Made by a program: the position numbers and the translations under genes. A stretch of DNA of 64,000 nucleotides, from the NCBI GenBank assembly GCA_949289065.1, contig CASEMA010000007.1, positions 14,967-78,966 of the forward strand. The letters run 5' to 3'. Every line of letters begins with the position of its first letter. Position 1 is the stretch's first letter. The notes beneath the pieces are model-generated. The model saw nothing but the letters and a program-made list of their open reading frames with translations, did no database searches and had not been told where the DNA came from. Below, piece after piece: positions 12,904 through 26,738 of this stretch. The stretch comes from an uncultured Eubacteriales bacterium (GTDB lineage Bacteria > Bacillota > Clostridia > Lachnospirales > Lachnospiraceae).

Positions 12904-13902
12904 ATGAAGACAGAAGTCAGAAACATTGAAGAAAAAATTATCCATCCGGTCAATGGCGCTGTGATGCTCATTGTGAATCTGATGTTATTAGCGGCATTCG
13001 GTGTCTTATTTGCTGTAGGCGTTCAGCAGTCAGTGGTTGGGCATTTAATCGTGGCGGCAATGATGATTGCTGTATCCTGTGTCGGTGTGGTCGCTGTGCT
13101 TATTGCTTTTGGGGGCTTGAAGACGGTACGGCCAAACGAGGCGCTTGTATTGACATTGTTCGGAGCCTATTACGGAACGATCCGGAAACCGGGATTTTAT
13201 TTTGTTAATCCTTTCAGCGCATCTAATAGTCCCTTGTATACCGCCGCGGTAAAGAATGTAAATTCGAAATCCGGCGAGGTGGGAACTATCGCAATTCCGG
13301 GCAGGAAGCGCGTGTCGTTAAAGAATAATACTTTGAAAAATGAAAAACAGAAGGTCAATGACGGTATGGGCAATCCGATCGTTATTGGAACAAATGTGAT
13401 TTGGCGCGTAGACGATCCGACAAAAGCGGTTTTTAATGTGGAGGATTATGCCGAATTTATTTCAATTCAGACCGATTCTACGGTGCGGAATATTGCCCGG
13501 CTTTATCCATATGATGTGATCGACGAGGAAAATGACGAGAGTGAAAAGACTCTGAGGGGAAGTGTTCAGGAGATTGCTGACCGGATGCAGGCGGCGCTCC
13601 AGGAACAGGTAAATATTGCCGGGATAGTTATTGAAGATGTGAAGATTACCAATCTGGCCTATTCGGAAGAAATTGCGGCAGCTATGCTTCAGCGCCAGCA
13701 GGCCACAGCCATTATTGCGGCCCGTCAGAAAATCGTGGATGGCGCTGTGGGAATGGTCAAGATGGCCATCGATAAGCTGGGCGACGAAGAAATTGTTCTT
13801 TTGGATGAGGAACGGAAGGCGGCGATGGTCAGCAATCTTCTTGTTGTCCTTTGCTCCGGAAAGGACACGCAGCCTATTGTCAACAGCGGAAGTATATATT
13901 AA
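12904..13902 (+). CDS. SPFH (band 7/stomatin-like) membrane protein
   Basis: Two N-terminal TMs, KVND..GNPI.IG..V.WRV, LAYSEEIAAAMLQRQQA, VGMV..A...L. Confidence 0.88.
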   Translation: MKTEVRNIEEKIIHPVNGAVMLIVNLMLLAAFGVLFAVGVQQSVVGHLIVAAMMIAVSCVGVVAVLIAFGGLKTVRPNEALVLTLFGAYYGTIRKPGFYFVNPFSASNSPLYTAAVKNVNSKSGEVGTIAIPGRKRVSLKNNTLKNEKQKVNDGMGNPIVIGTNVIWRVDDPTKAVFNVEDYAEFISIQTDSTVRNIARLYPYDVIDEENDESEKTLRGSVQEIADRMQAALQEQVNIAGIVIEDVKITNLAYSEEIAAAMLQRQQATAIIAARQKIVDGAVGMVKMAIDKLGDEEIVLLDEERKAAMVSNLLVVLCSGKDTQPIVNSGSIY

Positions 13903-13930
13903 ACTTTAAGTAAAGGGAGGAGGCGAAGCC

Positions 13931-14206
13931 GTGGAAAAGAATCATTTGGATGAACATTTAGATGAAAAGGAAGAAAAGCTTCGCGCACGTCTGGAAAAAC
14001 TGGATTCCCTTGAGAAAGAAATTAAAGCGCGGGAGAAGGCGATGAAGGCCAGGGAGAGCGCCAAGAAGCAGGTGCTGCTTCGTTTGCCCCAGGGGCTTTG
14101 GGAGGACATCTCCCAGTGGGCCAGCGACGACTTTCGCTCAATTAACGGACAGATTGAATATTTACTGACAGAGGCGGTGCGCAGCCGTAAAAAGGGAAAG
14201 GGATGA
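13931..14206 (+). CDS. Arc-like ribbon-helix-helix DNA-binding protein with N-terminal coiled coil
   Basis: KKQVLLRLP..LW..I..WA.DDFRSINGQIEYLL.EAV. Confidence 0.75.
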   Translation: MEKNHLDEHLDEKEEKLRARLEKLDSLEKEIKAREKAMKARESAKKQVLLRLPQGLWEDISQWASDDFRSINGQIEYLLTEAVRSRKKGKG

Positions 14207-16581: not shown

Positions 16582-17898
16582 ATGCATCAGGAACTTTACT
16601 TACACATTGCCTTCTTTTTTATCTATTCTTTTTTAGGGTGGGTGATAGAAGAGATTTTTGCGGCCTTTAAATATGGCCGTTTTATTAATCGGGGGTTTTT
16701 AAACGGACCTTTGTGCCCGGTCTATGGAATTAGCATGTTTGTTATCGTTAATGTGTTGTCGGATTATAACTTGCAGCCGCTCTGGCAGGTCATCGGAGCC
16801 ATAGGGATTGTGACGGTCATTGAATATGTAACCGGAGCCCTGCTTCGGAAAATAACCGGACGGCGTTTCTGGGATTACCGCAACATGCCCTATAATTTAA
16901 ACGGATACATTTGTCTCAGATATTCTGTTTTTTGGGGGATTCTTTCAGTAGCAGCTTTGTGGCTTGCTCAGCCGCCGATTGTTATTTTGTTGCTTCTTAT
17001 ACCAAAACGGGTCGTTCAGTTGATACTTTTGGCGGTCGGAATTGTATTACTTCTGGACCTCGGAGTGACCCTGGCGGCCTCGCTTCACTTGAATTTAAAG
17101 GGCGGCGTGGCGGAAAATGTGGCTAGCCAGGCAAATCAGGTTCGAAGAAACATGGGAAGGCGGATTTTTATGGCAGTTCAGCGCCGTATGTATACGTCCT
17201 TTCCTGAATTAAAAAGCCAGGAACCTTCGGAGAAAACCGGGTTCGGGCAGGTTCATGGACGAACCTTTGCCAAAGGTTTGTGCATCGAAAAACTGATCTG
17301 GATATTTTTTATTAGCGGCGTGGCGGGGGATATTGTAGAAACCATTTTTATGTGGGCGACGACGGGGCGGGTTATGAGCCGGAGCAGTTTCCTTTACATT
17401 CCGTTCAGTATCGTCTGGGGCGCCGGCGGCGCCCTTGGAGTTGGATTACTGGATTCGGTGAAAAAAAGCAGAGTGCGCATATTTCTGGGCGGTTTCTTTT
17501 TCGGCGGTGTATTTGAATATTCCTGCTCGGTTCTTTCCGAATTGCTTTTCGGGACCATATTCTGGGATTACAGCCATTTGCCTTTTAATCTGAACGGCCG
17601 GATTAATTTGTTGTTCTGTGGGTTCTGGGGCGTTGCGGCCCTTGTACTGATTCGTTTGATCTATCCGATAGTCAGTCGCTGGATTGAAAGGATACCTTTA
17701 ATTTCGGGGACGATTCTGACATGGGTATTGGTAGGTGCTATGGTACTCACAGCTCTGGCGTCCTCCATGGCCATTACCCGCTATGTACAGCGCCAGGCCG
17801 ACATACCGGCCAAAAGTGTTGTCGGTGCGTTTCTGGACGAACAATATCCCGATGTCCTGGTTGAAGGCGTTTATCCATATATGAAGATTGTAAAATAA
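16582..17898 (+). CDS. Membrane protein with two CmpB/TMEM229-like (putative ABC permease) domains
   Basis: Duplicated RGFL.GP.CPVYG / FWDY...P.NLNG.I.L motif. Confidence 0.75.
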   Translation: MHQELYLHIAFFFIYSFLGWVIEEIFAAFKYGRFINRGFLNGPLCPVYGISMFVIVNVLSDYNLQPLWQVIGAIGIVTVIEYVTGALLRKITGRRFWDYRNMPYNLNGYICLRYSVFWGILSVAALWLAQPPIVILLLLIPKRVVQLILLAVGIVLLLDLGVTLAASLHLNLKGGVAENVASQANQVRRNMGRRIFMAVQRRMYTSFPELKSQEPSEKTGFGQVHGRTFAKGLCIEKLIWIFFISGVAGDIVETIFMWATTGRVMSRSSFLYIPFSIVWGAGGALGVGLLDSVKKSRVRIFLGGFFFGGVFEYSCSVLSELLFGTIFWDYSHLPFNLNGRINLLFCGFWGVAALVLIRLIYPIVSRWIERIPLISGTILTWVLVGAMVLTALASSMAITRYVQRQADIPAKSVVGAFLDEQYPDVLVEGVYPYMKIVK

Positions 17899-17903
17899 CA
17901 GTT

Positions 17904-19325
17904 TCATTTCTGGTAATCCTTCGGATTTAGGCCGAGTTTTTCAAACTTTTTGTATAAGCCGGAAATGTGAAGGCCAGTAATTGCAGAAACTCTGGATACA
18001 TTTCCCCGGGCCTGGGTCAACATTTTTTCGAAGTAAGCGGTCTCGTATTTTTGTTTAAATTCTTTATAGGTTATAGATTCATCACAGTAACAGGAAACAG
18101 TTTTTTCAAAGACTGGCGGCATCGGTGGTTGTTCAAAATGGCTGGACGGCTGGATGATCTGAATGGTGTTGTGCAGCGCATTGCCGTCAGTGATGACATA
18201 GCGCTGCACAACATTTTTTAGTTCTCGCACATTGCCCGGCCAGGAATAGGCTTTGATCGCGTTCATATATTCGGATACTATCTGAATATTTTTTTTATAT
18301 TTATTATTGTATTTTTGAAGGAAAAAATCGACAAGAGGTTCAATATCGCCGGGTCTCTGACGAAGCGGCAGCATGGTCAGGGGCAGTACGTTGAGGCGGT
18401 AGTACAAATCTTCACGAAATGCCCCTTTTTTAACCATATCCAGGAGGTTTCGGTTGGTGGCGGCAATGATGCGGACATTCAGATGCTTGGTCTCTTTGCC
18501 GCCAATCTTTCGGACTTCTCCGGTTTCTAAAACTCGAAGCAGCTTTGGTTGGAGCTGGGGCGATAATTCGCCGATCTCATCTAAAAATAGTGTGCCGTTA
18601 TTGGCCAACTCAAATAGTCCCATCTTACCGCTTTTATTAGCGCCAGTAAAAGCGCCCTTCTCATAACCGAATATTTCGGATTCCATCAATGACTCGGAAA
18701 TTGTAGCACAGTTGACAGGAACAAATATTTCATTGCGCCGGTTACTGTTAGAGTGAATATGTTTGGCAAGGACTTCCTTTCCTGTGCCGGATTCGCCGTA
18801 AATGATGACATGGGTGTCAATTTTTGATACCTGCAGGGCAAAGTCAAAAATGTTTTTGCTATGAGGATCTACGGCGATATAAGAAGGAATGTCCTGGGTG
18901 TTGATGATCGTGTTCAGCAGCTTGCGCATATATTTGCTTGTTTCTTCCATGTAGGTATTATATTCCGAAGAAAAGGATTCGCTTTGGCTGAAAGCGATAA
19001 CGCGGACGAGTTCGCCGGTTTCATCAAAGATCGGTACAGAGTAGGCATAAATACCGCGGTTTGGATCATGATTGATGAGAAGGTAGGCCATCTGCGGTTT
19101 TTTTGATTCAAGACATCGGATGAGAGAGCTTTCACTGAATACGCCTCTGTCCAGCATTTCATAGGCTGTGGTGCCGACAATTTCATCTCTGGAAAGGCCG
19201 GTTAGTTTGCAGGTGCCTCTGGAACATAAGAGGATTTTTCCGACGTTATCGATAATTAAAATACTGCCTTCGTATTTTTCTAAAATGTCTTTATAATATT
19301 GCATATCATTTCCAAATAAATCCAT
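17904..19325 (-). CDS. Sigma54-dependent activator (PAS, AAA+, HTH)
   Basis: GESGTGKE, ESEIFGYEKGAFTGA, LFLDEIGEL, FREDLYYRLNV, WPGNVREL. Confidence 0.93.
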   Translation of the reverse strand: MDLFGNDMQYYKDILEKYEGSILIIDNVGKILLCSRGTCKLTGLSRDEIVGTTAYEMLDRGVFSESSLIRCLESKKPQMAYLLINHDPNRGIYAYSVPIFDETGELVRVIAFSQSESFSSEYNTYMEETSKYMRKLLNTIINTQDIPSYIAVDPHSKNIFDFALQVSKIDTHVIIYGESGTGKEVLAKHIHSNSNRRNEIFVPVNCATISESLMESEIFGYEKGAFTGANKSGKMGLFELANNGTLFLDEIGELSPQLQPKLLRVLETGEVRKIGGKETKHLNVRIIAATNRNLLDMVKKGAFREDLYYRLNVLPLTMLPLRQRPGDIEPLVDFFLQKYNNKYKKNIQIVSEYMNAIKAYSWPGNVRELKNVVQRYVITDGNALHNTIQIIQPSSHFEQPPMPPVFEKTVSCYCDESITYKEFKQKYETAYFEKMLTQARGNVSRVSAITGLHISGLYKKFEKLGLNPKDYQK

Positions 19326-19530
19326 AAACTCACAGCTTTCTAAAAAAGTATAATTCTTATTTTTTATTCTATAAAAATAGAAAAGATAGTAGACAAATTA
19401 ACTATAACATAAATGATTGAAAAATAAAAGAAGAAAAAATTGAACAAAAAATACAATAAATTTCCTAAAATAACGGTTAATATTTGGGTAAATCTTATAA
19501 AAAAATAATTTGATTTGGGGAAGATAAAAA

Positions 19531-19547
19531 TTGGAATCGAAATTGCT
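19531..19547 (+). promoter_or_regulatory. Sigma54 -24/-12 promoter
   Basis: TTGGAATCGAAATTGCT (GG-N10-GC), divergent from a GAFTGA activator. Confidence 0.8.
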
Positions 19548-19564
19548 GATAAAAATAGTAGATA

Positions 19565-19590
19565 TTAATTGACAATTGATTGTCAATTAA
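19565..19590. promoter_or_regulatory. Perfect 12-bp inverted repeat in the operon leader
   Basis: TTAATTGACAAT-TG-ATTGTCAATTAA. Confidence 0.6.
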
Positions 19591-19626
19591 AAATATCCAA
19601 TTTTATCATTTCAAGGAGGGTTTTGT

Positions 19627-21189
19627 ATGAGTAAGGTAATGTCATTGAATGAAGCTATTGGCTTGATTCGGGATGGCGACCGGGTTGCCGCATCGGGAAT
19701 TTGTATGTCCGGTGTGCCGGAGGAAATTATGGCTGGCATTGAGAAAAGTTTTTTGGAGACAGGAAAGCCAAGAGATTTGAATATGATTTTTGCTGCCGGT
19801 CAGGGATGTTGGGACGATATCCATGCTTATCAGCATATGGCTCATGAGGGGCTGGTGGCTTCGGCGATTGGTGGTCACTTTGGCACGTGCAAAAGTTTCG
19901 GGAAGCTTATCGAAGATAATAAGATTATTGGCTACAATATGCCTCAGGGGGTTATTGTGGATTTATTCCATGAAGCTGTGAAAGGTATGCCGGGACATAT
20001 TACGAAGTTAGGCTTAAAAACTTTTGTGGATCCGCGTATTGAAGGCGGAAAGTTAAATGCCAGAACGACAGAGGATATCGTAAAAGTTATCGAAATTGAC
20101 GGTGAGGAATATTTGATGTACAAAACGCCAAAGATTGACGTGGCATTGATTCGAGGAACATCCGCTGACGCTTATGGAAATATTTCCTTTGAGGAAGAAG
20201 CCCTTCCTGTAGATATGCGTCTGATTGCCATGGCAGCAAAGGCCTGCGGTGGTAAGGTGATTGTACAGGTTAAATATAGCTGTGAACGGTTAATGACAGA
20301 TAAGGTTGTCATTCCTGGTATTTTTGTGGATGCGGTTGTTGTTTCCGAGGAACCTGAAAAGAATCATCGTCAGACTCAGCTTCATTTTTATGATCCAAGT
20401 TTATCCGGCCGTGTATTTGTTGCTCAGGATGCCATTGCCTCATTGCCATTAAACGCGAAGAAGGTTATTTCCCGCCGGGCTGCTATGGAGCTGACAAGAG
20501 GAGCGGTGATCAATCTAGGTGTCGGCACACCGGAAGGCATCGCGAATATCGCGGCGGAAGAAGGCGTCAGTGATTTGATTACAATGACTTCTGAGAGCGG
20601 CGCTGTCGCAGGCGTTCCGCTGGGCGGCAAGGCCTTTGGTTCCGTACAGAATGCGTGGGCGATTGTCGAACAGGAAGTCCAGTTTGATTTCTATGATGGC
20701 GGCGGCCTGGATGTTTCTTACCTTGGGCTGGCAGAAGCGGATAGGGTTGGAAATGTTAATGTAAGCCATTTTGGTACAAATGTTACAGGCTGCGGCGGAT
20801 TCATTAATATCTCCCAGACAACTCAGAATCTGGTTTACTGTGGAACATTTACAGCCGGCGGATTAAAAGAAACCATCGGCGACGGCAAATTGACCATCCT
20901 TCAAGAGGGACGTCAGAAGAAGTTTATCGATAAAGTACAGCAGATTACATTCAGCGGCGAATATGGTGCAGAAATCGGTCAGAACGTATTATATGTTACT
21001 GAAAGGGTCGTATTCAAGCTGGTTGAAGGCGGATTGAAACTGATTGAGATTGCTCCTGGTGTAGATTTACAGAAGGATATCCTGGATCAGATGGAATTTA
21101 CGCCGATTGTCGAAGATTATAAGCTGATGGATGAAAGACTTTTCAGAGAAGAAAGCATTCATCTGAAAGAAATGATGTTATCCAAATAA
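19627..21189 (+). CDS. Family I acyl-CoA:acetate CoA-transferase (YdiF/Pct-like, fused subunits)
   Basis: GLKTFVDPR.EGGK, INLGVGTPEG, TSESG (catalytic Glu region), FDFYDGGGLD, GCGGFINISQ. Confidence 0.9.
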   Translation: MSKVMSLNEAIGLIRDGDRVAASGICMSGVPEEIMAGIEKSFLETGKPRDLNMIFAAGQGCWDDIHAYQHMAHEGLVASAIGGHFGTCKSFGKLIEDNKIIGYNMPQGVIVDLFHEAVKGMPGHITKLGLKTFVDPRIEGGKLNARTTEDIVKVIEIDGEEYLMYKTPKIDVALIRGTSADAYGNISFEEEALPVDMRLIAMAAKACGGKVIVQVKYSCERLMTDKVVIPGIFVDAVVVSEEPEKNHRQTQLHFYDPSLSGRVFVAQDAIASLPLNAKKVISRRAAMELTRGAVINLGVGTPEGIANIAAEEGVSDLITMTSESGAVAGVPLGGKAFGSVQNAWAIVEQEVQFDFYDGGGLDVSYLGLAEADRVGNVNVSHFGTNVTGCGGFINISQTTQNLVYCGTFTAGGLKETIGDGKLTILQEGRQKKFIDKVQQITFSGEYGAEIGQNVLYVTERVVFKLVEGGLKLIEIAPGVDLQKDILDQMEFTPIVEDYKLMDERLFREESIHLKEMMLSK

Positions 21190-21213
21190 TACTTAGAGAT
21201 AGGGGGAAGAGAT

Positions 21214-22505
21214 ATGGGTATTTTGTTAATTGTTATTGGTTTAGTCATTATGACAGTCCTTGCAGTAAAGGGGATTCCGATTTTGTGGGCCGCTCTTGTT
21301 GCCGGAGTCTTTGTTCTGGCTACGGCAGGCTTAAATATCGTTGAAGGTATTACTGTAACCTATATGACGGGCTTTTCTGGATATATCATGAATTACTTTT
21401 TAATGTTCGTTCTGGGAGCTATATTTGGAAAACTGTGTGAAGTCAGCGGCGCTTCCGACAGTATCGCTCAGGCTGTTGTAAACAAGCTGGGTGAGAAATA
21501 TGTTGTTCTTGCGATTATTGTCGCAGCGGCGATTCTCGCCTTCGGCGGCGTATCCCTATTCGTTGCTCTGTTTACACTGTATCCACTGGCTATGAGTTTA
21601 TTTAAACGGGCGGATATTCCGAGACGTCTGTTCCCTGGCGTTTATATCGCCGGCGCGGCGACCTTTGCCATGACGGCGCCGTTTACGCCGTCTACACAGA
21701 ACATTGTTCCTATGGCATATCTTGGCACAACGCTTTCGGCCGGAATGGTTTCCGGACTTATCGGTACAGTTTTCTGTGCAGTTGTTGTTTGTATTTATAT
21801 GCAGTGGCGCGTGGGCAGTGTGAAAGCAAAAGGTGAACATTATGTTCCGCTGGCCGGTGAAGTTGAAGAGAGCGGTGTGCAGAAGGATTTACCAGGACTG
21901 ATTATCGCTTTGATTCCGATGATCGTTTTGATTCTTGCCTTGAACGTGTTTGGATTGAATGTGGTTGTCGGACTCTTTATCGGCTGTGTTGTTGCTGTTG
22001 TTCTGTACTGGAAATGGCTGCCTCATACGATGGCAGAGTTTTGGAAACAGATTACAGCCGGCGCGCAGAATGGTATTATGTCTATCGCCAATACGGCAGC
22101 CGTTGTAGGGTTTGGGTCGATCGTTACCGCAACGCCGGCATTTGGAACGCTGGCAGAAATCGTTCAGGATTTTGCGCAGAATGGTAATGCCTATGCGGCA
22201 GTAGCAATTTCCGTAGTGGCTTAGCAGGTATTTCAGGTTCTGCTTCCGGCGGCTTGGGTATCGCGATTCCAATCGCGGCAGATATTTTCCTGCCGATGGG
22301 CATTAACCCGGAAGCTTTACATCGTATTGCGGTTATTTCCAGTTCCGCATTGGATTCTCTGCCGCATAACGGTTTTGTAAATACCTGTCTCCAGTACACG
22401 CATACGAATCATAAGGAAGCTTACTTTGATATCTTTATTGTATCTGTTGCCGTTACGATTGTTGAGACAATCCTGGTTGTTATACTGTTTTCTGTAATGG
22501 GTTGA
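21214..22505 (+). pseudogene. GntP/IT-family organic-acid permease split by a 1-nt deletion near 22221 (real or artefact)
   Basis: Frame 1 ends ...AISVVA* (TAG 22222-22224); shifted frame continues LAGISGSASGGLGIA...LDSLPHNG. Confidence 0.8.
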
Positions 22506-22526
22506 CCATGTAAGGAGATGTGAAAT

Positions 22527-23305
22527 ATGGAATTGAAAAATACTATTTATGAAAAACAGGGGAATGTGGCTGTTATTAAACTAAATCGCCCAAAGGCACT
22601 GAATGCTTTGAATACGGAATTGCTTCAGGAGCTTGAGACCGTTGTCAGTGCCGTAGAAAAGGATGAAGAGGTTCGGGTGGCTGTTATTACCGTGAAGGAA
22701 AGGCTTTTGCGGCCGGCGCGGATATTGCGGCCATGAAAGATATGAATTCTATGGAAGGTCTGGCATATGCGAAAACCGGACAGGCTGTGTATCGTCATAT
22801 CGAAGAAGTTCGCAAACTGTTCATCGCTGCCATTAACGGCTTTGCCCTTGGCGGCGGCTGTGAACTGACATTGGCCTGCGATTTGCGGATTGCTTCGACA
22901 AAAGCAAAGCTGGGTTTGCCGGAAACCGGACTTGGTATTGTTCCGGGATTTGGCGGCACACAGCGTTTGCCGAGATTAATCGGCGATGCTAAAGCGAAGG
23001 AATTGATTTTTACTGCGGATATCATCGGCGCCGAGGAAGCGTTGGCTGTCGGCCTGGTGAACCGGGTCGCAGAGCCGGAAGTTTTAATGGATGAAACAAT
23101 GAAGCTGGCGGGAGATATTCTTGCGAAAGCGCCGATTGCAGTCGGATTTGCTAAAGATGCGATTAACCGGGGAAAACAGGTGGATATGGATTCTGCCGAA
23201 GCTCTGGAAGCATTGTATGTCGGAATGTGCTTTTCTACGGATGATTTACACGAGGGAATGACAGCCTTTGTTGAAAAGAGAACTGCAGCCTTTAAATCAA
23301 AATAG
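22527..23305 (+). pseudogene. Crotonase-family enoyl-CoA hydratase split by a 1-nt deletion near 22692 (real or artefact)
   Basis: LNRPKALNALN...VITG-EGKAFAAGADI restored by adding one G; AINGFALGGGCEL and LPETGLGIVPGFGGTQRL in the second frame. Confidence 0.85.
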
Positions 23306-23317
23306 GAGGAGATTTTT

Positions 23318-23764
23318 ATGAGAGAGGTTCGAGGTAAAAGGTATGGGGAATGGGTGATCGGAGAGGTTTATGAGACTGGAAGAAGAACGGTAACAGAGAC
23401 AGATATCGTAAATTTTGCCGGGCTTTCCGGAGATTATAATCAGCTTCATACCGATGCGGTTTTTGCCGAATCTACACCGTATGGCGGGAGAATCGCTTAT
23501 GGCGCCCTCGTTTTTTCGATCACAACAGGTCTGGTAGACCATTCGGGACTGATTGCCGGCACGGTAATCGGTTTTCTTGGCGCAAGTATGTCCTGGAGCG
23601 CTCCGGTGAAAGCGGGAGATACGATTTCCGTAAAAATTACGCCAATCAATAAGAAATTAACGAAGAATCCGGGACGGGGAATTGTTACGTTGAAATTACA
23701 GGTCGTCAATCAGAACGATAAAGTTACCTGTGAACAGGAATGGACGGTAATGTTTACAGTATAG
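23318..23764 (+). CDS. MaoC-family (R)-specific enoyl-CoA hydratase/dehydratase
   Basis: RTVTETDIVNFAGLSGDYNQLHTD...PYGGRIAYG hot-dog hydratase motif. Confidence 0.88.
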   Translation: MREVRGKRYGEWVIGEVYETGRRTVTETDIVNFAGLSGDYNQLHTDAVFAESTPYGGRIAYGALVFSITTGLVDHSGLIAGTVIGFLGASMSWSAPVKAGDTISVKITPINKKLTKNPGRGIVTLKLQVVNQNDKVTCEQEWTVMFTV

Positions 23765-23788
23765 TCATTTAAAGGGAGGAAATATATT

Positions 23789-24931
23789 ATGGGTTATGTT
23801 TTAAATGAAGAATCGATGGATATTGTAAAACTTGCAAGAGATTTTGAAGAAAAGGAGGTTGCTCCGGTATGCGCAGAGTATGACAAAAAGGGTGAGTTTC
23901 CGATGGCTCTCTATCAAAAAGCTTTTGAACGGGGCTTCCAGGCATTGGAAATTCCGGAAGAGTACGGTGGAAGCGGACTTGATTACTACACAGTATGCGC
24001 AGTATATGAAGAATTTGCAAGAATTGACGCCGGGTTCTGTACAGGTGTTGCCGCAACCGGGCTGGCTTTAAAACCGGTATTAATGTTTGGAAATGACGAA
24101 CAGAAGAATTATTTTGCAGAGTATATCTGCGGCGGTAAAGGCAATGGCTTTGCGGCATTTGCTTTGACGGAGCCAGATGCCGGTTCGGATGCTGGTGCTG
24201 GTAAGACGGTAGCTGAAAAGGTCGGCGACGAATACGTCATTAACGGAAGAAAATGCTTTATTACAAATGCAGGACCGGCTCAGATTTATGTTGTCTTTGC
24301 TATTACGGATAAATCCAAGGGCGCAAGGGGATATTCCGCATTTATCGTAGAACGCGACCGTGAAGGTGTTTCTGTCGGCAAGGAAGAAGATAAGATGGGT
24401 ATCCGTCTCTCAAATACAGCGGATCTTGTTCTTGATAATGTTCATGTTCCTGCGGACCACCTGATCGGTAAAGAAGGAAAAGGCTATGCTTATGCAATGG
24501 CCACATTGGATTTGGCAAGACCGATCATCGGAGCCATGTCCGCAGGTATTATTCAAAGATGTATCGACGAATGTGTGGCTTATGCAAAACAGAGAGTGAC
24601 TTTTGGAAAACCAATTATCAAACATCAGGTAAATCAATTTAAGATTGCCGATATGGAAATTAATGCAGAAGTTACCCGCTCCGCAGTGATTAATTGCTTC
24701 AACCAGTATTATGCCGGAAAACCATATGGTAAGGAGGCAGCCATCGCTAAATGCTACGGCGGTGATTCGGCCGTTGAGTGTGCCCTTGAAGCAATTCAGA
24801 TTTTAGGCGGTTATGGTTATTCCAGAGAATATCCAGTAGAGAAGCTTTTGAGGGATGCCAAGATTATGCAGATTTATGAAGGGACAAATGAAATTCAGCG
24901 TATGGTCATTGCTGGTTATGTTTGCCGATAG
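23789..24931 (+). CDS. Acyl-CoA dehydrogenase (Bcd-like)
   Basis: FALTEPDAGSDA, NGRKCFITN, EDKMGIR.S.T, AIQILGGYGY..EYPVEK..RDAKI.QIYEGTNEIQR. Confidence 0.93.
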   Translation: MGYVLNEESMDIVKLARDFEEKEVAPVCAEYDKKGEFPMALYQKAFERGFQALEIPEEYGGSGLDYYTVCAVYEEFARIDAGFCTGVAATGLALKPVLMFGNDEQKNYFAEYICGGKGNGFAAFALTEPDAGSDAGAGKTVAEKVGDEYVINGRKCFITNAGPAQIYVVFAITDKSKGARGYSAFIVERDREGVSVGKEEDKMGIRLSNTADLVLDNVHVPADHLIGKEGKGYAYAMATLDLARPIIGAMSAGIIQRCIDECVAYAKQRVTFGKPIIKHQVNQFKIADMEINAEVTRSAVINCFNQYYAGKPYGKEAAIAKCYGGDSAVECALEAIQILGGYGYSREYPVEKLLRDAKIMQIYEGTNEIQRMVIAGYVCR

Positions 24932-24942
24932 GAGGACTTTTC

Positions 24943-25728
24943 ATGAATATTTTGGTTTGTGTAAAACAGGTGCCGGATACGACGGAAATTAAAATTAATT
25001 ATGAGACAAATACATTGATTCGGGAAGGGGTGCCAAGTATCGTCAATCCTTTTGACGCCTATGCTCTGGAAATCGCCGTTCGCCTGAAAGAAAAACACGG
25101 GGGAACAGTGTCGGTTCTGTGTATGGGACCGGACCAGGCCAAAGCAGCGTTGAAAGAATGTTTATCTGTGGGGGCGGATAATGCTTACCTGTTATCGGAC
25201 AGAGTCTTTGGCGGTTCAGATACGCTGGCAACAAGCTATATTCTTTCCTCAGCCATTAAATCTCTTGGCGAATTTGATTTAATCCTGTGCGGTAAACAGG
25301 CCATTGACGGCGATACGGCTCAGGTAGGACCGGAAATCGCGGAACATCTTGAGTTGACCCAGGTTACATATGTGTTGGATGCTGAAATCGCCGACGAAAA
25401 GTTGCTGGTTAAGAAAGAAACAGAAACCGGTTATCAGATGATTGAAACAAAAACGCCGGCCGTACTCACCGTTGTAAAAACAGCCTTTGAACCACGTATG
25501 GCCACCGTTAAAGCTAAAATTGCCGCAAACAGAAAGCCAATCTCAGTAATTACTTCTAAGGATATTGAAATTGATTTGACCCGGGCCGGACTGAAGGGTT
25601 CCCCGACAAAGGTTAAAAAGACCTTTACACCGCCGATGAAAGGCGACAGCATGATTATTGCTGAAGATACGGCGGAAGCGTCCGCTCGTAAGCTGGTTTC
25701 AATTCTTGATGATAAGAACATTATTTAG
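24943..25728 (+). CDS. etfB: Electron transfer flavoprotein beta subunit
   Basis: VCVKQVPDT, NPFDAYALE, GGSDTLAT, GKQAIDGDTAQVGP. Confidence 0.93.
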   Translation: MNILVCVKQVPDTTEIKINYETNTLIREGVPSIVNPFDAYALEIAVRLKEKHGGTVSVLCMGPDQAKAALKECLSVGADNAYLLSDRVFGGSDTLATSYILSSAIKSLGEFDLILCGKQAIDGDTAQVGPEIAEHLELTQVTYVLDAEIADEKLLVKKETETGYQMIETKTPAVLTVVKTAFEPRMATVKAKIAANRKPISVITSKDIEIDLTRAGLKGSPTKVKKTFTPPMKGDSMIIAEDTAEASARKLVSILDDKNII

Positions 25729-25739
25729 GAGGTGGCAAG

Positions 25740-26738
25740 ATGCTTGAAGACTACAAAAATCTGTGGGTATATATCGAATCAAATAAAGGAGCCGCGGCCA
25801 ATGTGGGGTTGGAGCTTCTGAATCCGGTACGGACTTTGGCGGCCAGTGTCGGTGAAAAAGTAGTTGCTGTGGTTATTGACGGTGAAAATACAGAGGAGCT
25901 TGGCTCTGAAGCCATTAAATATGGTGCGGATGAGGTTATCCTTGTCGAAGGTAGGGAATATAGCGACTATTCAACAGATGGGTATACGAATGTGTTAGAT
26001 AATCTTGTAAAAAAATATAAACCGAGCGCAATGTTTATCGGAGCGACAAACCGGGGAAGAGATTTGGGGCCGCGTCTGGCCGCCCGATTAAAAACCGGTT
26101 TGACAGCGGACTGTACAGCCCTTTCTATGGACGGCGGAAACATTGTATGGACCCGTCCGGCCTTCGGCGGCAATCTGATGGCAAACATTCTCTGCCCAGA
26201 CCACAGACCCCAGTTGGGGACGGTTCGTCCCGGTGTGTTTAAGAAAGCAGAGCCGGATGAAAACCGGACCGGCAATCGGATTCGTGAAATTATTAATACG
26301 CCGGAGGAAATGATTCGTACAAAAATTGTGGATATTGTTTCAACCGTTGCCTCCGATATTCCAAATATCGAAGAAGCAGAAATCCTTGTCTCCGGCGGCG
26401 CCGGCGTCGGCGGCCCGGAAGGATATGAAGTTCTGAAAAAACTGGCGGCAGCATTGGGAGGCAGCATAGCGGCTTCCCGAGCCGCTGTAGATGCAGGCTG
26501 GATTGACCATGCTTATCAGGTTGGGCAGACCGGAAAGACAGTTGGCCCGAAGATTTATATTGCCTGCGGTATCTCCGGAGCGATTCAGCATATTGCCGGA
26601 ATGTCCTCCTCAGATACGATTATTGCTATTAACAGAGATCCGGACGCAAATATTTTCAAAGTGGCCGATTATGGCATTGTTGGGGATTTGTTTGAAATCG
26701 TGCCTGTTTTAGAGCAGGAAATCCTCAAACGTAAATAA
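25740..26738 (+). CDS. etfA: Electron transfer flavoprotein alpha subunit
   Basis: GLTADCT, TRPAFGGNLMA, QVGQTGKTV.PK.YIACGISGAIQH.AG. Confidence 0.93.
   Translation: MLEDYKNLWVYIESNKGAAANVGLELLNPVRTLAASVGEKVVAVVIDGENTEELGSEAIKYGADEVILVEGREYSDYSTDGYTNVLDNLVKKYKPSAMFIGATNRGRDLGPRLAARLKTGLTADCTALSMDGGNIVWTRPAFGGNLMANILCPDHRPQLGTVRPGVFKKAEPDENRTGNRIREIINTPEEMIRTKIVDIVSTVASDIPNIEEAEILVSGGAGVGGPEGYEVLKKLAAALGGSIAASRAAVDAGWIDHAYQVGQTGKTVGPKIYIACGISGAIQHIAGMSSSDTIIAINRDPDANIFKVADYGIVGDLFEIVPVLEQEILKRK

Follow-up and report, generated by a model that had tools for sequence, protein, structure and literature searches.

A repeatedly lost sigma-54-controlled operon, broken in this copy and probably serving acid import and reduction, in a chicken-gut Lachnospiraceae species

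The subject of this report is an operon and its divergent regulatory gene at positions 17904-26738 of a 64,000-nucleotide stretch of DNA (the window, meaning the whole stretch analysed) from contig CASEMA010000007.1 of assembly GCA_949289065.1, the host being a chicken-gut member of the Lachnospiraceae in a Frisingicoccus-like genus, whose assembly yielded no 16S rRNA gene. The main new result is that this copy of the operon is broken and that the operon has been lost repeatedly within the species. The locus is probably an accessory operon, controlled by sigma-54 and an enhancer-binding protein (EBP), for the import, coenzyme A (CoA) activation, dehydration and reduction of an acid, present here as a pseudo-operon and lost repeatedly across the species. 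All eight gene products listed in a first-pass annotation of this DNA were found where that annotation had placed them (open reading frame listing, Pfam and NCBIfam scans), and the scans agree with it that neither a thiolase nor a 3-hydroxyacyl-CoA dehydrogenase (Hbd) is encoded in the operon. The EBP gene lies on the minus strand, and the seven plus-strand genes are spaced by gaps of 11-29 nt. The features are as follows.

17904-19325, minus strand: sigma-54 EBP, 473 amino acids, with an N-terminal PAS domain, an AAA+ sigma-54 interaction domain and an AAA lid; intact
19367-19382, unstranded: candidate upstream activator site, inverted repeat TTCTAT-N4-ATAGAA, about 165 bp upstream of the -24 element
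19532-19547, plus strand: -24/-12 sigma-54 promoter element TGGAAT-N5-TTGCT (TGG-N9-TGC), from pattern match and conservation
19565-19590, unstranded: perfect palindrome with 12-nt arms and a 2-nt centre, between the -12 element and the ribosome-binding site
19627-21189, plus strand: fused family-I acyl-CoA:carboxylate CoA-transferase (Pct/YdiF/FadX-type), 520 amino acids, PF01144; intact
21214-22505, plus strand: GntP-like permease pseudogene (open reading frames 21214-22224 and 22221-22505); the intact allele encodes 430 amino acids
22527-23305, plus strand: Crt-like crotonase pseudogene (open reading frames 22527-22691 and 22694-23305); frameshifted
23318-23764, plus strand: single hot-dog MaoC-type enoyl-CoA hydratase, 148 amino acids, PF01575 at 7.5e-22; intact
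23789-24931, plus strand: Bcd-like acyl-CoA dehydrogenase (ACAD, an enoyl-CoA reductase), 380 amino acids, three ACAD Pfam domains; intact
24943-25728, plus strand: EtfB, small subunit, PF01012; intact
25740-26738, plus strand: EtfA, large subunit, 332 amino acids, PF01012 and PF00766, lacking an N-terminal ferredoxin domain; intact

The state of this copy was judged against a comparison set, aligned to the window, that comprised a contig from an independent metagenome run (X2) and 20 same-species contigs from 20 samples, the latter retrieved with the MaoC protein and the flanking DUF3842 protein as exact-match queries. The window ACAD, looked up in the same way, returned just one short contig, and runs X1 and X3, which barely covered the window, are uninformative on alleles. 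The permease and crotonase genes each lack a single base. In the permease, an A is missing after 22220, which produces a stop at 22222-22224; in the crotonase, a G is missing after 22691, within the Gly56 codon of the VITG-GKAFAAGADI motif. Neither site is a long homopolymer, and the permease site does not lie in a homopolymer. The permease deletion is a real and common allele because it recurs both in the 7.3-kb contig of X2, where the missing base is present at 0/15 of the depth, and in about 20 contigs drawn from over 10 other samples (L018 with nine similar places, L020-L026, and L063 with two), similar places being taken to share the state of the contig displayed. The crotonase deletion is private to this assembly: X2, X19 and 20/20 other contigs of the species have the G. 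The same gene also bears a private P98L substitution at a conserved proline, and the seven substitutions in 12 kb that are private to the window all fall within the operon region (five coding, four of these nonsynonymous). Since this private P98L is accompanied by a clustering of all private substitutions in the operon region, the evidence on the crotonase deletion leans towards its being real.

Damage to the operon extends well beyond these two sites. Among the 20 same-species contigs the operon shows at least eight distinct, independent inactivating lesions, and cmpB, DUF3842 and prfC, which flank it, show 0 in all 20. In addition to the permease deletion after 22220, the lesions are these.

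After 22691: crotonase frameshift, in the window only
CoA-transferase: Q397 changed to a stop codon, in L021
18882/18883: IS110-family transposase (DEDD_Tnp_IS110) inserted in the EBP gene, in two samples (L020:349-1650 and L023:349-1650)
Permease: stop at codon 19, in L059 and L065
EtfA: stop at codon 5, in L064 and L065
20861-22173, 23616-23964 and 26274-26783: triple-deletion haplotype, in L005, L056, L062 and X19 contigs
ACAD: an extra 1-nt deletion, in L005

The triple deletion removes the 3' end of the CoA-transferase gene together with the permease, the 3' end of the MaoC gene together with the 5' end of the ACAD gene, and the 3' end of the EtfA gene, and short direct repeats flank two of its three deletions. 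Intact alleles also circulate (L019 with two similar places, L057, L058, L060 and L061), and intact contigs make up about 4/14 of the sample anchored on the flank, the less biased of the two. The first-pass annotation had proposed an active inducible pathway and had allowed for the contrary case, in which the frameshifts are real and the operon is silent. It is largely this contrary case that is observed: the permease frameshift is genuine and common, and many further knock-outs accompany it, so that this copy is to be regarded as a decaying operon and the active pathway is not borne out here.

The decay is recent. The orthologues in sister species (L001, L002, L004, L014, L015) are intact, and comparison of the intact allele with that of a human-gut sister species gives a ratio of nonsynonymous to synonymous substitution rates (dN/dS) of 0.01-0.06 for every gene, which shows long-term purifying selection on the intact orthologues. 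Because intact alleles persist and sister-species dN/dS is this low, the operon was functional until recently. It is present in 4/15 species of the genus, and the permease family in 14/300 Lachnospiraceae genera sampled; as a trait the operon is accessory and often lost. In one contig of a sister species (L003) the EBP gene bears a 1-nt deletion of its own, at position 7649 of L001, and loss-of-function alleles of the operon are therefore not confined to one species. As to the surroundings of the locus, comparison with the sister species of 86% identity (L001) reveals extra genes in the upstream flank, at window positions 12904-14206 and 16582-17898; these are an SPFH/Band-7 gene with a small ribbon-helix-helix gene, and a gene for a CmpB-type membrane protein between deoB and the EBP gene.

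The identities of the parts are supported to differing depths. The EBP matches PF00158 (Sigma54_activat) at 1.7e-67 as well as PAS_9/PAS, and carries the Walker A motif GESGTGK at residue 177 and GAFTGA at residue 224; it gave no helix-turn-helix Pfam match at E<=0.001, whereas its paralogue in module C37, described below, has HTH_50. The CoA-transferase is a single chain matched by PF01144 in two stretches, with E. coli YdiF (2ahu) as its best solved relative in the PDB (427 bits, 8.7e-127, residues 4-509); it scores 445 bits against the NCBIfam FadX model, below the cut-off of 750, its homologues carry the source name 'propionate CoA-transferase', and a motif search places SESG where the putative catalytic Glu is expected. 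The permease is a distant GntP relative, for which searches of NCBIfam and the Atlas with the intact protein gave no label beyond 'GntP family permease'. The intact crotonase allele reaches 378.6 bits against PRK05809, the NCBIfam model of clostridial Crt (cut-off 394), and keeps its catalytic Glu residues in GGGCE and LPETG, while the MaoC hydratase bears the Asp/His hydratase motif GDYNQLH and is presumably (R)-specific, as its family membership would suggest. In the ACAD the catalytic Glu motif YEGT (IYEGTNEIQ) lies at residue 363, and the PDB matches include 5lnx (349 bits) and the C. difficile Bcd 5ol2_C (336 bits). EtfB scores 319 bits against the NCBIfam EftB model, below its cut-off; it carries DGDTAQVGP, the second-FAD motif typical of bifurcating Etfs, seen here as GKQAIDGDTAQVGPE.

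The -24/-12 promoter proposed in the earlier annotation has withstood closer inspection. The bare consensus, at up to two mismatches, occurs in the window no more often than chance predicts (21 matches, 27.5 expected), and since the pattern by itself is not enriched the call rests on context and conservation. The GG and GC and the spacing between them are kept at the same place in three species (the window, L001 and L015), the divergent EBP gene adjoins the element, and rpoN is intact in the genome (PF04552 match on C2, 465-residue open frame, no stops). Further upstream, the activator may bind the inverted repeat at 19367-19382, whose core TCTA-N6-TAGA is kept in the same three species. The palindrome at 19565-19590 is likewise kept in three species, both of its arms being altered in L001, and its core (19569-19586) is the sole strict match in the 2.7-Mb genome; it could be either a locus-specific operator for an unknown repressor or a hairpin in the 5' untranslated region. 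A role for the core as a Rex-type or other global operator was considered and rejected, the core being unique in the genome and Rex-like patterns giving nothing notable.

A route for the intact operon can be proposed from this gene content. The GntP-like permease would bring in a short carboxylic acid, and the Pct/YdiF-type transferase would move CoA onto it from the product acyl-CoA, a swap by which no ATP would be spent on activation. MaoC (R) and/or Crt (S), which are of opposite stereochemistry, would then interconvert the 3-hydroxyacyl-CoA and the 2-enoyl-CoA, and the Bcd-like ACAD with the bifurcating-type EtfBA would reduce the enoyl-CoA with NADH, the co-reduced ferredoxin passing to Rnf, a complex that the genome encodes. 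We infer the order of the reactions, the electron bifurcation, the substrate and the cause of the loss. The original suggestion that an imported acid is reduced as an electron sink stands as regards the gene set, which fits import, CoA transfer, dehydration and reduction through a bifurcating-type Etf; it does not stand for this copy, which is broken. Pairing an R- with an S-hydratase points to a substrate that is chiral and has at least four carbons, (R)-3-hydroxybutyrate or another short chiral 3-hydroxy acid being the best guess. MaoC may serve as the entry dehydratase for the (R)-acid, and Crt may carry crotonyl-CoA on to the (S)-specific Hbd and the thiolase, both encoded by stand-alone genes, a branch that would yield ATP and make the whole a disproportionation to butyrate and acetate. 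The two hydratases had earlier been explained as handling both enantiomers, which is just one reading, as MaoC and Crt would equally serve a single (R)-substrate; the single (R)-acid entering through MaoC, with Crt passing part of the enoyl-CoA to the (S)-specific Hbd and thiolase, is the version that we would prefer.

The operon is one of several of its kind in the 2.7-Mb genome, which holds six Pct-type transferases, six ACADs, seven EtfB proteins, four permeases of this family and five EBPs. The paralogous modules are as follows.

C37 (L007): PAS-EBP with bcd-etfBA-pct-permease; intact, its ACAD the canonical Bcd (612 bits to 5ol2_C)
C11 (L011): LysR with pct-permease and etfBA-acad-maoC; intact, its Etf 62-64% identical to the window Etf
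C10 (L012): MarR with crt-pct-permease and acad-etfBA; in-frame TAG in the permease
C9 (L009): EBP-crt-etfB followed by a transposase
C5 (L013): lactate-type arrangement of GntR, FAD-oxidase and acad-etfBA

Six Pct-type transferases and six ACADs under a sigma-54 EBP, LysR, MarR and GntR suggest a repertoire of acid-reduction modules for different substrates, and redundancy with the paralogous modules may explain why the operon is dispensable. Damage was also seen in other members of these modules in this genome: the in-frame TAG of the C10 permease lies at L012:8563-9870 (G000:C10:18574-19863), the C9 cluster ends in a DDE transposase at L009:4994-5650, and a But-type CoA-transferase gene on C18 has an in-frame TAA at C18:24065-24547; another But-type transferase is encoded on C4. 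On C16 (L008:11530-14630) a further sigma-54 EBP is followed directly by a homologue of the AbfD-type (HpaB-fold) 4-hydroxybutyryl-CoA dehydratase, a pair that resembles the XanR regulon of Nie et al. The genome has a single thiolase (C1) and a single hbd, each standing alone outside the operon, and the butyrate-pathway genes are for this reason unusually dispersed. The sole hbd is about 5 kb from rpoN (L027, C2:134000-150000), between an L-PSP (RidA-like) gene and purA.

Beyond the preferred assignment lies a wider and rather improbable proposal, in which the intact operon and its paralogous modules would constitute an uncharacterised gut route from (R)-3-hydroxybutyrate to butyrate and acetate, and its recurrent, independent loss among chicken-gut populations would mean that a costly sigma-54 pathway is selected against in a host that does not offer its substrate. 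Host ketone bodies or bacterial polyhydroxybutyrate, as monomer, would supply the (R)-3-hydroxybutyrate; MaoC would be the point of entry, Crt the bridge to an oxidative branch, and the specialised bifurcating ACAD/Etf an energy-conserving sink.

Other functions have to be weighed against import and reduction of a chiral acid. A C3 route, in which 3-hydroxypropionate or acrylate passes through acryloyl-CoA and propionyl-CoA to propionate, as in the tail of the acrylate pathway without lactoyl-CoA dehydratase, draws on the facts that the best NCBIfam models are AcrC, AcrB and AcrA of C. propionicum, that the transferase family is annotated as propionate CoA-transferase, and that in Anaerostipes a Pct-type transferase, a crotonase and an ACAD-Etf turn 3-oxopropionate into propionate (PMC8355322). 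Yet all three Acr scores fall far below their cut-offs (390/640 bits for the ACAD against AcrC, and 250/475 and 341/600 bits for the other two; equivalogs NF042972, NF042971 and NF042970), and AcrABC membership was rejected. AcrC is moreover the best model for all six ACAD paralogues, with that of the window among the lowest-scoring, and 3-hydroxypropionate is achiral, which leaves the R- plus S-hydratase unexplained. It is doubtful that the operon serves this route.

Production of butyrate from acetyl-CoA, by a regulon of the CrbR type in which Crt, Bcd and EtfBA work with dispersed thl and hbd genes and Pct acts as butyryl-CoA:acetate CoA-transferase, is quite unlikely. The single stand-alone thl and hbd genes and the closeness of the crotonase to clostridial Crt are in keeping with it. 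Against this, C37 encodes the canonical Bcd (612 bits to 5ol2_C) together with a separate set of EtfBA, Pct and permease, C4 encodes a But-type transferase, and the window ACAD is, of the six paralogues, the most divergent from Bcd and AcrC (336 bits to 5ol2_C). The operon is also found in just 4/15 congeners and is dispensable within the species, and an importer and an (R)-hydratase would be superfluous for a route from acetyl-CoA. Because the canonical Bcd is on C37 and the window ACAD is divergent, the operon is not considered to be the main butyryl-CoA route, in agreement with the first-pass view that de novo butyrate synthesis is not its role.

It is very unlikely that the operon is functional in this strain as an active inducible pathway, with frameshifts that are sequencing errors or are tolerated, since the intact EBP, promoter, Pct, MaoC, ACAD, EtfB and EtfA, the restriction of the crotonase frameshift to this assembly, where it may be an error, and the mapping of RNA-library contigs to the locus in another strain are set against a permease deletion that recurs outside homopolymers in an independent run and some 20 contigs, a private P98L in the crotonase, private operon changes that are nonsynonymous to synonymous as 4:1, and seven further knock-outs in other strains.

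Several observations nonetheless count against the reading of the locus preferred here. The crotonase frameshift could be an assembly error, and the contig counts given above depend on the assumed state of the similar places. Flux may persist without the permease, given that short acids are able to diffuse and that three permease paralogues are encoded in the genome, so strains with the frameshift only may retain activity. With EBP, Pct, MaoC, ACAD and Etf intact in the window, the route from (R)-3-hydroxyacyl to acyl could still run. The joints of the triple deletion were seen in contigs of X19, a metatranscriptomic library with possible DNA carry-over, which hint that this haplotype is transcribed and that the promoter may still fire. 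The ratio of nonsynonymous to synonymous polymorphism (pN/pS) of 0.25 in the operon versus 0.13 in the flanks is not significant, there being few sites. Finally, the proposed substrate is a guess, and no clue to it came from the gene neighbourhoods of ACAD homologues at 60% identity in Clostridium bovifaecis and a Roseburia sp., which are heterogeneous.

If the substrate were found, its identity would define a new energy-conserving conversion, by gut Lachnospiraceae, of an acid from outside the cell to a short-chain fatty acid. The practical use of the locus lies in its intact, permease-only, multi-lesion and triple-deletion haplotypes, which form a natural allelic series within one species, which allows genotype to be compared with metabolite without genetics in an anaerobe that is hard to manipulate. 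There is in addition a caution for functional prediction: counting crt, bcd, etf and pct genes as a measure of butyrate or propionate capacity scores a broken operon as functional.

Parallels with systems described elsewhere are instructive. Nie et al. (2019) predicted sigma-54 regulons of the Clostridiales, namely CrbR, XcgR and YctR, with near-identical parts and filed them under butyrate/butanol synthesis (PMC6615313); their function rests on genomics only, and the signal molecule is unknown (PMC6615313). Likened by gene content, these regulons and the present operon have in common an EBP with a -24/-12 promoter, a CoA-transferase, a GntP-type permease, a crotonase and/or MaoC, and Bcd-EtfAB. 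They differ in that here one operon holds all the parts, including both hydratases and neither hbd nor thl, in that the transferase is of family I and not CaiB-type, and in that the host is a Frisingicoccus-like member of the Lachnospiraceae and not Clostridium or Clostridioides.

In Anaerostipes rhamnosivorans, Bui et al. (2021) described a branch in which OxcT, EcdH and AcaD, with AcaD-EtfAB, convert 3-oxopropionate to propionate, with proteomic and enzymatic support and with the Pct-type OxcT, the enoyl-CoA hydratase and the ACAD-Etf all induced on inositol (PMC8355322). The likeness lies in the reduction of a CoA-activated short acid, again within a Lachnospiraceae host, by an ACAD/Etf complex that works with a Pct-clade transferase and an enoyl-CoA hydratase. 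The Anaerostipes branch differs in taking its substrate from within the cell, as an intermediate formed when inositol is degraded, and in requiring a 3-hydroxyacyl-CoA dehydrogenase; it also lacks both MaoC and a permease of its own, and no sigma-54 dependence is reported for it.

The bifurcating Bcd/EtfAB complex (C. difficile 5ol2, M. elsdenii 1buc) shares with the window proteins the YEGT motif, DGDTAQVGP and an EtfA without a ferredoxin domain, and differs in that the window ACAD is a divergent paralogue, at 336 bits to 5ol2_C as against 612 for the Bcd of C37. The logic of the operon would seem to mirror that of the E. coli cai/fix carnitine pathway. There, caiTABCDE and fixABCX provide for import of a 3-hydroxy acid, a CoA-transferase that recycles product CoA, the crotonase CaiD and the acyl-CoA dehydrogenase CaiA fed by the Etf-type FixAB, and the whole acts as an electron sink. 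That pathway employs a family III transferase and a BCCT antiporter, has no MaoC, acts on a quaternary amine and is regulated differently, and against the NCBIfam CaiA and CaiD models the window proteins score far below cut-off. In the literature no characterised anaerobic operon of this make-up for the uptake and reduction of 3-hydroxybutyrate or 3-hydroxypropionate was found. The architecture as such is already catalogued, and the locus is a new arrangement of a known, uncharacterised kind, with an importer, a family-I transferase, both hydratases and a dehydrogenase-Etf set gathered behind one sigma-54 promoter.

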